64,000 nt of DNA from Escherichia coli (GTDB lineage Bacteria > Pseudomonadota > Gammaproteobacteria > Enterobacterales > Enterobacteriaceae): the NCBI RefSeq assembly GCF_003334335.1, contig NZ_QOWQ01000002.1; one strand, 5' to 3'. Numbering within the stretch: the first letter of the stretch is position 1; each line of letters begins with the position of its first letter. The notes beneath the pieces are model-generated. The model saw nothing but the letters and a program-made list of their open reading frames with translations. It had not been told where the DNA came from and ran no database searches. Position numbers and translations under genes: made by a program. This document shows, one piece after another, positions 50,238 to 57,709 of this stretch.

Positions 50238-50270
50238 GAAAAAGAAGGGATAGTAGATAGACGCAGAGCG

Positions 50271-51119
50271 TTAAGTGAACTGTGTACGACTATCGCCAAA
50301 ATACTCTAAACATAACTGCCTGAATTTTGCCCGCCATTCATCGATATTAAAATCATAGCGTTCCTGAAATGCAGTCGTTTCACTGGACATTATCCAGGCA
50401 TAATTATGTAACAGGGTTAATGCCTGAAGCGGTTTTCTCTGCGCAAAATAAGTATCAACACACATCTGCATCAAGGGGTAATTATTATTTTCCTTTGTTC
50501 CTCCAAAGCTAAGATCTAATCCTTGTTCTTTAATGCACTGAATCACAGGATCATCCTGGAAATTCGGGACATCTGCGGCCTGTGACAGCAAATGAATGAC
50601 TTTATTGTCAGGAACACCAAATGCCCAATTGCCAAGATAAGCATTAAGCGCAGCCTGTGCTGCAGCTTCTGTTTTTTTACATCGGCGATACTGGATTGCC
50701 AGTGCTAACCAATATTCGCTGACTTCAGGCAATTGTTCTGTTGCTCGCTGTAACAGTGGCAGTGCGTCATCAAGCCTTCCCGTTGAAAGACATTTCCGAG
50801 CAACACGGAAGAGATTTGCTGCAAAGTCTTGATCTTCGATGCTGATGCCATTTTCATGGGGATCATCATCATTCACTTCCAGCCATTCTTCGAACTTCTT
50901 AATGCTGGAAAAGGCAGGTACGATTCGCCATTCGTCATGGTACGTTTCGCACACTATAGGTAGTTTATGCTCCTGACCAATAGGCCAGTACAAACCGAAA
51001 CAGTCTCCGTTACCATATGCTGCATCTGTAAGTACGGTAAATCCGTTCGGAGGAAAAGGCCCCGGGCAAATTCCATCAATGCCAGGTGAAATATCACTAC
51101 TGCGAGGAATAAGTTTCAT
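50271..51119 (-). CDS. yfbP: Uncharacterised protein YfbP; N-terminal region reminiscent of SUKH/Smi1-Knr4 immunity domains, helical C-terminal half
   Basis: 282 aa from the second ATG (AAGGA 6 nt upstream); motifs GNGDCFGLYWP and HDEW; SUKH assignment is inference only. Confidence 0.75.
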   Translation of the reverse strand: MKLIPRSSDISPGIDGICPGPFPPNGFTVLTDAAYGNGDCFGLYWPIGQEHKLPIVCETYHDEWRIVPAFSSIKKFEEWLEVNDDDPHENGISIEDQDFAANLFRVARKCLSTGRLDDALPLLQRATEQLPEVSEYWLALAIQYRRCKKTEAAAQAALNAYLGNWAFGVPDNKVIHLLSQAADVPNFQDDPVIQCIKEQGLDLSFGGTKENNNYPLMQMCVDTYFAQRKPLQALTLLHNYAWIMSSETTAFQERYDFNIDEWRAKFRQLCLEYFGDSRTQFT

Positions 51120-51177
51120 CATGTTCCTTCACATAAAAATTTATGTAAACATCCGCTTATCTGTTTATATAAATGTT

Positions 51178-51600
51178 TTAATCCCACCAACAAGTAACCG
51201 GATGCATACCCACAGGGACTTCAACCCATCCATGCTCCGTATCTTCTGACCATCCTTCCCAGCACTCATCAGGGGCAATTTCTTCTACAAACCAGCTCTG
51301 AACTTCTTCTGGTGAAGCAGTGGTGATAACTAAAATACTTTCACTAAAGGGCCAGTCTGGGTCATCGAACATCGTAATTTCTACCAAAACATCACTAACA
51401 TTGTTACGCTCACGTATTTTCAGAAAATGGTGATAGATAGCTTGCGGAGATTGTTCTGGAATCACATTGCAACATATTGAACCATGGATATTATTGTCAA
51501 TAAAAAAATCCTCAAGAGATAACAATGGACGAGGAGTATCAGGATTATTAACATCACCATTGATATTAACAAGTTGGGTAATGCGTTCTAAAGGTGTCAT
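51178..51600 (-). CDS. yfbO: Uncharacterised small acidic, Trp-rich protein YfbO
   Basis: 140 aa from the ATG at 51600 (AGGGA Shine-Dalgarno); the track extension to 51654 has no ribosome-binding site. The C-terminal third is acidic and Trp-rich. Confidence 0.7.
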   Translation of the reverse strand: MTPLERITQLVNINGDVNNPDTPRPLLSLEDFFIDNNIHGSICCNVIPEQSPQAIYHHFLKIRERNNVSDVLVEITMFDDPDWPFSESILVITTASPEEVQSWFVEEIAPDECWEGWSEDTEHGWVEVPVGMHPVTCWWD

Positions 51601-51808
51601 AATTATTCCCTGAAATAATATATTCATCAAACGAATGACATTGTTTGAATTCATTAGCAGATAAATAGTGACAATTCCATACGTATTATTAGTTTCAAGA
51701 GCATCATAACATGAATGTTAAGCAGGAAAACGTGAGATATTCAGTCAGGCCGGGTCGTTATCCAGACGTTGTTATATTTAATATCATAAATATTTAAAGG
51801 GGTTTGAC

Positions 51809-52525
51809 ATGGAATGGTTAAGTGAAATTCGTAAACTTCGGAAGAACGTACCTGTCGGTATCCAGGTTGCCAGACGTTTGTTAGAGAGGACTGGCGGTGA
51901 TGTTGATGAAGCCATCAAGTTGTTTCATATTGACCAAATCAATATATTGACGGCAAAAGCAGACGTCACTCATCAGGAAGCAGAGAATGTTTTGTTGGCT
52001 ACAAACTATGATATTGCAGAAGCTCTTCGGCGTATTGATGAACAACGCTATACACTGACGGAATTGATTTTGCGTAAAAATAAGGATGCCGGAGATGCCT
52101 TAAACAATATAGCATTGGCGATTGAATATGAGTGGGATCTCAAGCGTAAGTTTTGGTTTGGTTTTGCAGATATCCAATTATTACCGCCAGTTTTACAAAC
52201 ATTTATGCTGGTTTATGAATGGCATGAATATGTTGGTTGGGAAGGAATGGAGTGTGGGATATTTTTTGAAAGTGATCATACTCACCAGCAATTGCAAGCT
52301 TTGGGGTTATTAGAACTCGCCCAAAAAATGGTTACTGCAAGAATCCGATATGATGAGCTAAAAGACAAGGCCGAAAATTTTCACGAGATTACAGAGGATG
52401 ACATATTCAAAATGCTTATAATACATTGTGACCAACTTGCAAGAGAGGTTGATTCTATATTACTGCAATTTGTGAAGGACAATATTGATGTTTTCCCGTG
52501 TCGCCATAACAGACACGAGTTATAA
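51809..52525 (+). CDS. yfbN: Uncharacterised protein YfbN with two N-terminal UBA/EF-Ts-N-like helical motifs
   Basis: 238-aa ORF; residues about 14-40 (VGIQVARRLLERTGGDVDEAIKLF) and 49-76 (HQEAENVLLATNYDIAEALRRI) resemble the EF-Ts N-terminal / UBA fold pattern. Confidence 0.75.
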   Translation: MEWLSEIRKLRKNVPVGIQVARRLLERTGGDVDEAIKLFHIDQINILTAKADVTHQEAENVLLATNYDIAEALRRIDEQRYTLTELILRKNKDAGDALNNIALAIEYEWDLKRKFWFGFADIQLLPPVLQTFMLVYEWHEYVGWEGMECGIFFESDHTHQQLQALGLLELAQKMVTARIRYDELKDKAENFHEITEDDIFKMLIIHCDQLAREVDSILLQFVKDNIDVFPCRHNRHEL

Positions 52526-52797
52526 AAAATAATCCCAAAATTGAACAGGCTTTTTATCTACCTGGTAATGACAGGTTCAATTCCGTTTTCATCAAGCATG
52601 ACAGATCGTTGCCAGCACAGAGGATATCGCTGTTACATACCGAATATACGGTATTGCATTTAACAATGCGACTAAGCAAGCATTTAGTAATATTTATACA
52701 AGGGGATAAAAACCGGACCATGGTTAAAGATTTTTTCAAGATGATCCTGGCGTAAATCTTAACTAATGGGTCTTTCTCCCCCAGGCATCAAGCTATA

Positions 52798-53301
52798 TCA
52801 CCCAACAATAACCGTCAGCGCATGATTCCCTTGTCGCAGCATACGTCGATACGCGCTAATCAGCTTTTCCATATCAAGCATGATCGAGGCAAAGAGTTGC
52901 CCCTCTAACTCTTCTGAAAAGGTCACTCCCGGATAAATCTCCATTTCATTGAGTCGCTTAATGGAAAACTGTTTACGCAGTTCATTTCGATCCAGTGATT
53001 CCAGTCGGTCGATTGTCGCGGCTAACTCCTGATTCCAGGTCAATCCAAGGAAGCCATCTATGCCATCTTCGAGGCTGTGTTCACCAAGCACGGCACGACT
53101 CAGCGGATCATTCTTCGCGGGATCAAAAGCAGAGGTGCCTGTCAGCCCAAAGTGTAAAAAATCCCAGCGTTTATCAATATCCAGTCGGCGTAATCCTGAA
53201 AGCGTGTCATGTATATTATCCATCAAAGGTTTTTCAGTAGACTCAAGCAGTTGGTTAATCTTTTCTGAGTCAATTTCTGCAAAATAGCCAATCATTCCCA
53301 T
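52798..53301 (-). CDS. yfbM: Uncharacterised protein YfbM (DUF1877 family)
   Basis: 167-aa ORF with GGAGG Shine-Dalgarno; no recognisable catalytic motif. Confidence 0.75.
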   Translation of the reverse strand: MGMIGYFAEIDSEKINQLLESTEKPLMDNIHDTLSGLRRLDIDKRWDFLHFGLTGTSAFDPAKNDPLSRAVLGEHSLEDGIDGFLGLTWNQELAATIDRLESLDRNELRKQFSIKRLNEMEIYPGVTFSEELEGQLFASIMLDMEKLISAYRRMLRQGNHALTVIVG

Positions 53302-56240: not shown

Positions 56241-56260
56241 TGACTGTTTAGCAAACTATG

Positions 56261-56294
56261 TTCGACCAGTCAGCATATTTGCTGACTGGTCGAA
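56261..56294. terminator. Perfect 14-bp palindromic hairpin between convergent yfbK and elaD
   Basis: ttcgaccagtcagc (56261-56274), loop atattt, gctgactggtcgaa (56281-56294); no clear U-tract on either strand. Confidence 0.5.
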
Positions 56295-56310
56295 TTAATT
56301 AACAATGATG

Positions 56311-57522
56311 TTAACTCACTCTTTTGCCGGATGCTCTATTTTTGGGTTGTGAGTGTTTTATTTCTAAGTTTCTATAATAATGATTGATATTTGCATCGCC
56401 ATATTTATCTAAATAACAATTTCTGTTTGCCAGTCGATGTTGAAAATCAATTTCGTACTGCTCTTCTGCTGAATATTTTTTAAATCTGTCAGCATAGTTT
56501 TTTAATAACGTATAGGGGGCGCTGTCAGAATTGCTTTCCCTTTGTTCAATCACTTCCTGGGCTGCCATGCACACAAATGCACCGCAACTTTGGCTTAAGT
56601 ATTGCTGAAGATCGGCATGTAAAAATATTATCTCTGGTTCATTTAAATGAACTTTTATATTATTATTCGACATTTCTCCCATGAGTTCAGAATTAAAACT
56701 ATTAATGACACGCTTAAGTGAATTTTCTTTATCATAGCCTAGTGCACGCAATGAGTTGAATATGACGCATTTTATTTGTAGTTTATTATTTTTTTTATTT
56801 ACTATTTTCTGTAGCGAAACTAATATCCAGTGTCCGCCAGTATTTATGGGGAATAACTGGACTTCATTCGGCCATGATGGATCGCTCTTAATATTTTCAT
56901 TGAGAGCGTCTTCCAGGTGAGTTCTGGTGGAGTAGGGGACGTAGAGACCAGTAGGATAATTGACTTGAGTATTTTTTGCATTAGCGGCGATCTTCTGAAG
57001 ATAGCAAGCTATTTCATCTGTGGTTAATTGACGATTTTTATCCCAGAAGTTTGTACCATCACTCAGTTCATTATTCTCATCATTTAAAAGCACCTTTGAA
57101 AGCGACTGTTTTTCAGATATAAGAGGAATTTCATCACCGATAATTGTCATTAATTTCGAAGGGGAGAATAGTTTTTTGAACAGGAGATCATCTGAATCAT
57201 GTGATTTGAGGGGGGAGTTGGTTGCGATATGTGCCAGATTATATAATTTTAAACAAGCATTTTTGATAAGTCGGATAATCGATAGGGTCTCATTTGTTGG
57301 GGTTCTAACAATATGGTAAAGAATATCTTCAGCTTCTTTCCCAAATTTATCATAACCTAACGCAATATTATGCAGTAACTCAATGCTTTCTTCATCTCCG
57401 GATAACGCTGTTTTTTTTAAAGACTGCAGTAATTCCTCGGTCACAGTAAATTTTTCTGCAAATGTCTGACTGAGTTGCGTTTGAGATAATTGACAATAAT
57501 TGCTGACAACTGTAACCATCAT
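56311..57522 (-). CDS. elaD: CE-clan (Ulp1-like) cysteine protease / deubiquitinase ElaD
   Basis: 403-aa ORF with catalytic-type motifs [10 protein letters not shown] (His) and QSCGAFVC (Cys); AT-rich codon usage. Confidence 0.85.
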
Positions 57523-57670
57523 GGGCTCCTTTTAGTTGCAAAGGTTGTGCTGAATCAAGATGAAAAGAGGCAACTTATTGCTCTGAATATAGTGCGTAAG
57601 GAGATGAATAAATATCAAAAATCGCTCAATATGCCTGTGTGGGTGGATATATGTAGCGCGGGTTGCGATA

Positions 57671-57697
57671 ACAGGGCAAGTTTCGCCCTGTTTTTAA
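57671..57697 (+). other. Plus-strand-oriented terminator-like hairpin between rbn and elaD (both minus-strand genes)
   Basis: acagggc/gccctgt stem followed by TTTTT on the plus strand; the minus-strand transcript has no U-tract after the stem. Confidence 0.45.
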
Positions 57698-57709
57698 TAA
57701 TAAGCAGAG

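Follow-up and report, generated by a model that had tools for sequence, protein, structure and literature searches.

Chromosomal integration hotspots, or regions of genome plasticity, are described by comparative genomics as sites between the core genes of Escherichia coli at which accessory DNA varies. The stretch analysed here, positions 50238-57709 of a 64,000-nt window of E. coli DNA (contig NZ_QOWQ01000002.1 of assembly GCF_003334335.1; "the window" below is this whole 64,000 nt), holds yfbP, yfbO, yfbN, yfbM, yfbL, yfbK and elaD. It resembles such hotspots in its fixed core flanks, the nuoN terminator and rbn, in a content that differs by strain and species, and in its AT-richness. It differs from them in being small (0.1-7.5 kb), in being filled with single-gene cassettes from a limited recurring pool (yfbK, yfbL, yfbM, yfbN, yfbO, yfbP, a cheV-like gene and elaD) instead of prophages or large islands, and in that much of its variation is scarred loss and not insertion. 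With the classical tRNA-linked genomic or pathogenicity islands it shares an atypically low guanine plus cytosine (GC) content and a variable presence, but tRNA, integrase, direct repeats and mobility genes are all absent, and it is not inherited as a unit. The heterogeneous polyimmunity loci (Zhang et al. 2012, PMC3482391) are similar in that unrelated small cytoplasmic proteins are juxtaposed in strain-variable number and type, no toxin gene lies inside the cluster, and relatives of YfbO and YfbP occur in SUKH arrays, once beside an LHH toxin. Those loci are polycistronic on one strand, whereas the K-12 genes have mixed orientation and spacers of 58-272 nt, match no recognised Imm family, have homologues in mostly toxin-free contexts and lack an adjacent recombinase.

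We consider it probable that the region from the nuoN terminator to rbn is a long-lived hypervariable accessory slot, in which genes have been added, replaced and, mostly, lost independently of one another under weak purifying selection. The observations behind this reading are the mosaic structure of the stretch, the population frequencies of its pieces, deletion scars, synteny in other taxa, the selection regime and fold assignments. Such a slot would change by cassette turnover and differential loss over a long residence, with some recombinational exchange, and K-12 would carry its fullest version. An integrase or tRNA would not be needed there, because exchange is possible by homologous recombination in the flanks. 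The stretch would then be no single system and would contain three unrelated functional groups. The first would be yfbL and yfbK, a divergent envelope pair for an M28 peptidase with a membrane anchor and a vWA lipoprotein; both would be long resident and follow the GC content of their host elsewhere. The second would be elaD, a persistently AT-rich gene for a CE-clan deubiquitinase, located where related genera have a cheV-like gene. The third would consist of yfbP, yfbO, yfbN and yfbM, four single-gene cassettes for small acidic cytoplasmic proteins without a recognisable catalytic domain. The features of the region and its flanks are given below.

48730-50187, plus strand: nuoN (RefSeq annotation).
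50211-50235, plus strand: intrinsic terminator of nuoN and left boundary of the variable region, a GC hairpin (GCCGCCG...CGGCGG) followed by a T-run, read from the sequence.
50236-52797, no strand assigned: yfbP-yfbO-yfbN module, 2.56 kb, 39.7% GC, a presence/absence polymorphism (junction comparison).
50271-51119, minus strand: yfbP, 282 amino acids, isoelectric point (pI) 4.8, cytoplasmic (RefSeq).
51178-51600, minus strand: yfbO, 140 amino acids, pI 4.1, net charge -21, C-terminal CWWD (RefSeq coordinates).
51809-52525, plus strand: yfbN, 238 amino acids, pI 5.1, all-helical (RefSeq).
52798-53301, minus strand: yfbM, 167 amino acids, DUF1877 (Pfam E 3e-35; PDB 1RYL).
53404-54375, minus strand: yfbL, metallopeptidase of family M28 whose N-terminus is a hydrophobic anchor or signal sequence (Pfam Peptidase_M28, NCBIfam LapA-like, N-terminal sequence).
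54513-56240, plus strand: yfbK, lipoprotein (lipobox LSGC) with vWF_A, VWA and YfbK_C domains (Pfam, N-terminal sequence).
56261-56294, no strand assigned: perfect inverted repeat (15-nt arms, 4-nt loop) separating the convergent genes yfbK and elaD (repeat search).
56311-57522, minus strand: elaD, CE-clan (Ulp1/C48) deubiquitinase of the ElaD/SseL family, 35.3% GC (NCBIfam equivalog, Pfam).
57710-58627, minus strand: rbn (RNase BN/Z), the conserved gene on the right, with GC back at about 0.51 (RefSeq annotation, composition).

Each piece of the stretch was searched for in 5,426 complete E. coli genomes. The yfbP-yfbO-yfbN module (50236-52797) was matched in 1,015 genomes, 987 of them at 99% identity or more, and was covered to at least 80% in 946 (17-19%). 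For elaD the corresponding numbers were 4,477 matched and 4,187 covered (77%), for yfbK 5,106 and 2,514 (46%), and for yfbM plus yfbL 5,377 and 3,288 (61%). The yfbM gene itself was present in 5,377 genomes (about 99%), and alone within the stretch it is effectively core and strongly constrained. Four differing layouts were exemplified among the strains, and at least five pieces segregate independently. The edges of the yfbPON module were exact: homology ended past the T-run of the nuoN terminator, which was kept in strains with and without the module, and resumed at the yfbM stop codon. In strains lacking the module, 15 bp (ggtgccctgacacca) separated the nuoN terminator from the yfbM stop codon. 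This 15-mer resembled both occupied junctions, with "tggtg" past the terminator and, ahead of yfbM, agreement with "ccccagacatca" at 9 of 12 positions, a short similarity that suggests deletion of yfbPON without proving it. The nuoN-yfbM sub-slot had three states in E. coli, namely empty, yfbPON, or a yfbN variant (yfbN') plus a gene for 191 amino acids. Absence of yfbK and of elaD is secondary deletion with scars, because end remnants persist in the strains lacking them: in about 2,400 genomes, all that was left of yfbK was about 9%, from the two ends of the gene, and elaD-less strains retained a 38-nt end remnant. About 2,000 genomes had an internally deleted yfbL, as in O157. The distribution of elaD agrees with a published survey, in which it was found in 66.6% of 530 strains and was absent from phylogroup B2 (PMC12575377).

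Several insertion sequences (IS600, IS1, IS903B and ISEcB1) were inserted within the stretch in different E. coli strains, and one E. coli genome kept only 8% of 8 kb, with two insertion sequences between nuoN and rbn. In a 365-kb sequence deposited as an E. coli plasmid (PLSDB CP137936.1, positions 279728-281054), yfbP and yfbO were present at 100% identity; either the plasmid has taken up a piece of chromosome or the record was wrongly assembled or labelled.

The GC content was 41.6% in 50238-57709 and 52.7% in the remainder of the window, and this segment was the minimum among all 7.47-kb sliding windows. In a 500-nt profile, GC fell from 0.58 to 0.42 within about 500 nt past nuoN and exceeded 0.5 again inside rbn; 60-nt bins inside and outside the region differed with a Mann-Whitney p of 1.3e-33. 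GC at third codon positions was 0.70 in nuoM and nuoN and 0.30-0.47 in the seven genes of the region. The earlier note on this DNA had described an abrupt shift in composition after the nuoN terminator with AT-rich codon usage, and these profiles bear it out; its spot counts of G/C (14 of 60 at 51121-51180 and 34 of 60 at 45541-45600) were exact, and its left coordinate lay within about 3 nt of a real population-level indel boundary, directly past the T-run. Composition thus varies within the window, and conservation of the segment falls short of universal, at least 80% of it being found in only 930 of the 5,426 genomes. The statement that the region has no tRNA, integrase or flanking direct repeat was also confirmed. 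A tRNA scan of the region found none, none of its open reading frames (ORFs) was an integrase or transposase, and a search for flanking direct or inverted repeats returned only short, chance-level pairs besides the single yfbK-elaD hairpin. An Rfam scan of 49.5-59 kb at E up to 0.1 gave no family, and a promoter and terminator scan gave counts not above shuffled controls. The inverted repeat at 56261-56294 is probably a shared bidirectional terminator hairpin; a simple terminator scan missed it because it has no T-run. AT-richness of this kind would keep the region under H-NS-type silencing; a literature search for elaD together with H-NS found nothing relevant. A second low-GC patch was seen at 32500-35500 of the window, covering lrhA, the lrhA-alaA intergenic region and the sequence upstream of nuoA, with 1-kb windows of 0.40-0.43 GC.

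It had been proposed that the 7.5 kb are one horizontally acquired islet, which reached the K-12 lineage in one piece. The atypical composition and the accessory, strain-variable status stood; the unity did not. In favour of one islet are the sharp GC drop at both edges, the small share of genomes holding most of the segment, and families that are patchy across phyla with relatives on plasmids. Against it, the pieces range in frequency from 17-19% to 99% and occur in many combinations, at least five of them segregating separately; the near-ubiquity and strong constraint of yfbM contradict a unit, as do the scars of yfbK and elaD, which mark secondary loss; yfbK and yfbL are near host GC in other genera; the region lacks a tRNA, integrase and flanking repeat; and the families are syntenic in other genera with divergence like that of the flanks. 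We therefore regard acquisition as a single islet as highly improbable.

The same slot was found, differently filled, in other taxa. E. fergusonii had the order nuoN-yfbN-(191-amino-acid gene)-yfbM-yfbK-(cheV-like gene)-rbn, the cheV-like product having CheW and receiver domains, and the cryptic Escherichia sp. E2748 had nuoN-(gene for a 409-amino-acid membrane protein)-yfbO-yfbN-yfbM-yfbL-rbn. Superficieibacter had nuoN-yfbN-yfbP-yfbL-yfbK-(cheV-like gene, again CheW plus receiver)-rbn, S. electus carried two further cassettes in the slot, and another enteric bacterium had yfbO-yfbL-yfbK-rbn. Fourteen E. coli genomes also had the fergusonii-type filling, with identities reaching 98.6%, and none of the E. 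coli genomes searched had the 409-amino-acid gene. The cheV-like gene (locus L013, 11984-12967, and locus L010, 3882-4883) lies between yfbK and rbn in E. fergusonii and Superficieibacter, which is the position of elaD in E. coli. This looks like gene-for-gene replacement at one position.

Divergence was in keeping with old residence. Between another enteric bacterium and K-12, protein identity was 68-70% for YfbO, YfbL and YfbK and 72-75% for Rbn and ElaA, and pairwise synonymous divergence (dS) of the slot genes was similar to that of the flanks. A single recent acquisition is made less likely by the occurrence of the same families in the same nuoN-rbn slot of other Escherichia and of Superficieibacter with divergence near that of rbn and elaA; this argues for old residence with differential loss. 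Two classes of GC content were distinguished. In higher-GC relatives yfbK and yfbL were near host GC (0.51-0.56), and yfbP, yfbO, yfbN, elaD and the extra cassettes had 0.32-0.46 in every host. Two points weigh against a long-lived slot shaped mostly by independent loss. In E. fergusonii, dS was 0.82 for yfbN, against 0.16 for nuoN and 0.31 for yfbM, so recombinational exchange contributes and descent is not purely vertical; and the yfbPON polymorphism in E. coli may have arisen by loss or by gain. In the elaD-less strain CFE299 (locus L003), the protein of elaA (6318-6779) was 86% identical to that of K-12 with a dS of 0.90, and the adjacent elaB was 100% identical. The divergent or recombining zone therefore reaches past the AT-rich stretch into elaA.

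Selection was estimated from pairwise ratios of nonsynonymous to synonymous divergence (dN/dS), which were as follows.

nuoN: 0.00-0.02.
rbn and elaA: typically 0.04-0.11.
yfbM: 0.04-0.08.
yfbK: 0.11-0.29.
yfbL: 0.17-0.45, and 0.74 in the O157 pseudogene.
yfbN: 0.21-0.25.
yfbO: 0.33.
elaD: 0.40-0.48.

Values above those of the flanks, together with recurrent loss, internal deletions, frameshifts and insertion sequences in many strains, would also fit decaying, functionless DNA, remnants on the way to deletion that are kept by drift. The region is dispensable in genome-reduced strains. However, pairwise dN/dS between intact genes was always well below 1 (0.04-0.48), real decay giving the value of the O157 yfbL pseudogene; the reading frames of K-12 are intact; the protein families of the region are conserved across phyla with invariant motifs; and the AlphaFold2 (AF2) models are confident, with a predicted local distance difference test score (pLDDT) of 88-96. 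Decay is accordingly very unlikely as an account of the stretch, and weak purifying selection in a hypervariable slot fits these values.

The gene names and mixed orientations given in the earlier note agree with the annotation that RefSeq gives for K-12-type genomes, which are 100% identical to the window over 8 kb around the stretch: yfbP, yfbO, yfbM, yfbL and elaD are on the minus strand and yfbN and yfbK on the plus strand, yfbK and yfbL are divergently transcribed, and rbn follows elaD. The spacers among yfbP, yfbO, yfbN and yfbM are 58, 208 and 272 nt. Its remark that these genes mostly have no assigned function was overstated, since ElaD is characterised (PMC1847702), a structure of YfbM exists (1RYL), and YfbL and YfbK have clear domains. 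ElaD matched the NCBIfam equivalog NF008812 at 455.7 bits (cut-off 250) and the Pfam families ElaD_SseL-like_N, Peptidase_C48 and ElaD-SseL-like_C. Among the CE-clan bacterial deubiquitinases ElaD, SseL and ChlaDub, the gene of the window encodes the type member, a full-length equivalog match without difference.

ElaD is a ubiquitin-specific protease and cleaves ubiquitin conjugates in vitro (PMC1847702), and vWA and TPR domains are common eukaryote-like interaction modules. An islet for interaction with eukaryotic hosts could be imagined on these grounds, in which ElaD, YfbN, YfbK and YfbP would act jointly on host ubiquitin signalling or adhesion. To our knowledge, K-12 has no functional type III secretion system. 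Moreover, co-segregation of the genes was not seen (elaD is in 77% and yfbN in 19% of genomes, and E. fergusonii carries yfbN but no elaD), secretion signals are lacking in YfbN and YfbP, and the relatives of YfbN are mostly in free-living Bacteroidota. We hold this reading to be highly improbable.

YfbP, YfbO, YfbN and YfbM are all small and acidic (pI 4.1-5.1) and have no signal peptide or enzyme domains. For YfbP, Pfam returned TPR matches only. In the AF2 model (pLDDT 88.5), a beta domain of five strands at the N-terminus precedes TPR-like helical repeats; the beta domain contains an invariant motif, GNGD.FGLYW...HDEW. A motif-based guess that the domain is SUKH-like was rejected when a profile-profile test against SUKH_5 gave a probability of 1.6%. 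The true start of YfbO lies 18 codons inside the longest ORF. YfbO is the type member of the recent Pfam family PF27222, its homologues being uniformly about 140 amino acids long and ending in CWWD, and it had no match in the Pfam library searched locally. For YfbM (DUF1877), a literature search returned only poultry papers, in which YFBM stands for yolk-free body mass.

YfbN is predicted to consist of two N-terminal UBA-like domains (about residues 1-80) and a C-terminal DMP19/DUF4375-like helical domain, with a bulk charge of pI 5.1 and net -14. In the model its N-terminus has the three-helix arrangement of the UBA fold. EF-Ts, a protein that does not bind ubiquitin, has this fold as well. 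Foldseek paired the YfbN model with a DUF4375 protein (E 6.7e-4, template modelling score 0.81); at the sequence level, YfbN gave no match to Pfam DUF4375, and a profile search of PDB sequences failed to recover DMP19. DMP19 is a DNA mimic of Neisseria (PMC3384305, PMC5722371; PDB 3wur) whose fold appears, from the model, to be common to the C-terminal domain of YfbN; identity is 12% with no sequence-profile match, and the two additional N-terminal UBA-like domains would be found only in YfbN. The YfbN family comprises stand-alone proteins of about 240 amino acids, with 235 representatives at E up to 1e-3 in a profile search, mainly from free-living Bacteroidota plus a few Enterobacterales. 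A 4,090-amino-acid match in the same search (P0275) was discarded as a NACHT-LRR repeat artefact. In BW25113, deletion of yfbN was reported to raise the yield of GFP per biomass about 2.6-fold above the parent, no mechanism being given, and the asparaginase titre only about 6% (32.08 against 30.29 U/ml) (PMC7376861).

Relatives of YfbP, YfbO and YfbN are scattered over Bacteroidota, Betaproteobacteria and Bacillota, some of them on plasmids, including conjugative Providencia and Proteus plasmids and Priestia megaplasmids. A multi-gene system would be expected to keep its parts together; no co-occurrence of YfbP, YfbO and YfbN homologues was found outside Enterobacteriaceae. Because the homologues never co-occur there, YfbP, YfbO, YfbN and YfbM are independent single-gene cassettes and not subunits.

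On 26 conjugative plasmids of Providencia, Proteus and Morganella, a YfbP relative covered only residues 99-282 at 47% identity and thus lacked the N-terminal beta domain. On the Providencia rettgeri plasmid pCHS4.1-3 (locus L031, 6902-7561), the YfbP relative was flanked by an ars operon on one side and by small hypothetical genes close to repB on the other. A locus search with a narrow YfbN alignment gave 10 loci, 3 of which were E. coli contamination in other assemblies. Copies of yfbN with 89-100% identity were located on very short contigs labelled as a Bacillota metagenome-assembled genome, Mycolicibacterium hodleri and Methylobacterium frigidaeris, and a YfbN fragment of "Streptomyces antimycoticus" in the AlphaFold database (AFDB) was 100% identical. 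The yfbN copies in these Bacillota, Mycolicibacterium, Methylobacterium and Streptomyces entries are almost certainly E. coli contamination. A Chitinophaga homologue of YfbN was flanked on both sides by a near-identical small ORF (locus L025, 4498-4830 and 7018-7458; starting MRDFKLWLEFEEVDPGNWDKE...), in a same-strand run of about ten small unannotated ORFs.

A preprint reported that Keio deletion mutants of yfbO and yfbL resist phage N4 and that ASKA plasmids restore susceptibility, an effect specific to N4 among the phages tested (bioRxiv 10.1101/2025.09.29.679331). The variability of the stretch might then reflect phage-driven selection for loss of envelope or phage-susceptibility determinants, with YfbL and YfbO being needed by N4. 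YfbL and YfbK are indeed envelope proteins with elevated dN/dS (0.11-0.45) and recurrent deletion. The report is single, not peer-reviewed and without a mechanism; YfbO is cytoplasmic and unrelated to YfbL; and yfbP, yfbN, yfbM and elaD would be left unexplained. PADLOC models gave no match to any of the seven proteins, PHROG gave none for YfbP, YfbO, YfbN, YfbM and ElaD and only generic vWA or peptidase matches for YfbK and YfbL, and tblastn of YfbN against 50,697 phage genomes found no homologue. Selection by N4 as the cause of the variability is, in our estimate, quite unlikely. For the orthologues of rbn, precomputed Pfam annotation listed PF23023 ("Anti-Pycsar_Apyc1") beside the Lactamase_B families, so that the fold of chromosomal RNase Z/BN matches a family of phage anti-defence nucleases.

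Within the proposed slot, YfbP, YfbO and YfbN, and possibly YfbM, may be stand-alone stoichiometric binders or decoys that each act alone, a role that we put forward tentatively. In that role they would inhibit incoming toxins or DNA-binding proteins, in the manner of orphan immunity proteins or DNA mimics. Genomic contexts of homologues are consistent with such a role. A YfbO homologue was located in an array of an LHH nuclease toxin gene, two SUKH_5 genes, the YfbO gene and a gene for 103 amino acids, with Tox-REase-5, Imm52 and SUKH nearby. A Tenacibaculum YfbP homologue was part of a tight same-strand array of at least 15 genes, including one SMI1_KNR4 (SUKH) gene, and the 191-amino-acid cassette of the fergusonii-type filling matched SMI1_KNR4 weakly (independent E-value 1.3e-3). 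In the LHH/SUKH array, the YfbO homologue was closely followed on its downstream side by a second, partial YfbO-like fragment (locus L006, 8848-8946; 33 amino acids, 52% identity), which resembles the orphan-cassette remnants of polymorphic toxin loci.

A stronger claim is that yfbP-yfbO-yfbN, with or without yfbM, forms a heterogeneous orphan polyimmunity locus, a pre-emptive stock against effectors of the type VI secretion system, contact-dependent inhibition or Rhs. The toxin-adjacent YfbO array, the YfbP array, the SUKH-like cassette in E. fergusonii and 14 E. coli genomes, and the small, acidic, cytoplasmic nature of the proteins are in its favour, as is the variation of content from strain to strain, a stated feature of such loci (PMC3482391). 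The mixed orientation and long spacers in K-12 are not in its favour, nor are the mostly toxin-free homologue contexts, the lack of any match to a recognised Imm family and the failed SUKH test of YfbP; moreover, yfbM is core and highly conserved, which is atypical of immunity genes in an arms race. We see this as possible but doubtful. In a wider form, which we judge unlikely, the nuoN-rbn slot would be an enterobacterial "pre-emptive immunity" depot, with YfbP, YfbO and YfbN, perhaps also YfbM and the SUKH-like cassette, as unrecognised families of orphan inhibitors. By the same equally unlikely account they would be decoys against nuclease or DNA-binding toxins from competitors, phages or resident toxin systems, YfbN being DNA-mimic-like with UBA-like adaptor domains.

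A number of results weigh against a binder or immunity role. Toxin- or immunity-like arrays were found in only 1 of 6 YfbO contexts and 1 of 5 YfbP contexts, and in the remaining nine the gene stood alone, with housekeeping or other assorted genes around it. A pooled Pfam scan of 47 proteins neighbouring YfbN homologues and the extra slot cassettes found no Imm or Tox families; the matches were miscellaneous (NUDIX, aminoglycoside adenylyltransferase, penicillin-binding protein transpeptidase, PIN and helix-turn-helix). The survey of immunity families in PMC3482391 lists none of these families and does not mention YfbM, YfbO or DMP19. The N-terminal domain of YfbP did not pass the SUKH_5 test described above, the mixed strands and 58-272-nt spacers of K-12 are unlike canonical polyimmunity loci, and the likeness of YfbN to DMP19, at 12% identity, is at the level of fold only. 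Finally, the phenotype in the preprint, N4 resistance of yfbO and yfbL deletions, is a different one (bioRxiv 10.1101/2025.09.29.679331). A preprint figure legend mentions yfbN in connection with RcaT-blocker hits.

Every gene of the region already has an annotation in E. coli K-12, and publications exist on ElaD and on its distribution among strains. To what is published on elaD, the present comparison adds that its position is held by a gene with CheW and receiver domains in E. fergusonii and Superficieibacter. The remaining novelty lies in the roles of YfbP, YfbO, YfbN and YfbM. Leads to these roles are the predicted fold-level architecture of YfbN, with two UBA-like domains and a DMP19-like domain, two independent genomic contexts that tie the YfbO and YfbP families to SUKH-type immunity arrays, and two preprint phenotypes, namely the N4 resistance of yfbO and yfbL mutants and the link of yfbN to RcaT-blocker hits in a figure legend. 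More generally, a sharp AT-rich block without mobility genes is easily misread as one acquired island. This block resolves into old residents, AT-rich cassettes and independent deletions, and low GC content alone therefore says little about the timing or the unity of acquisition.

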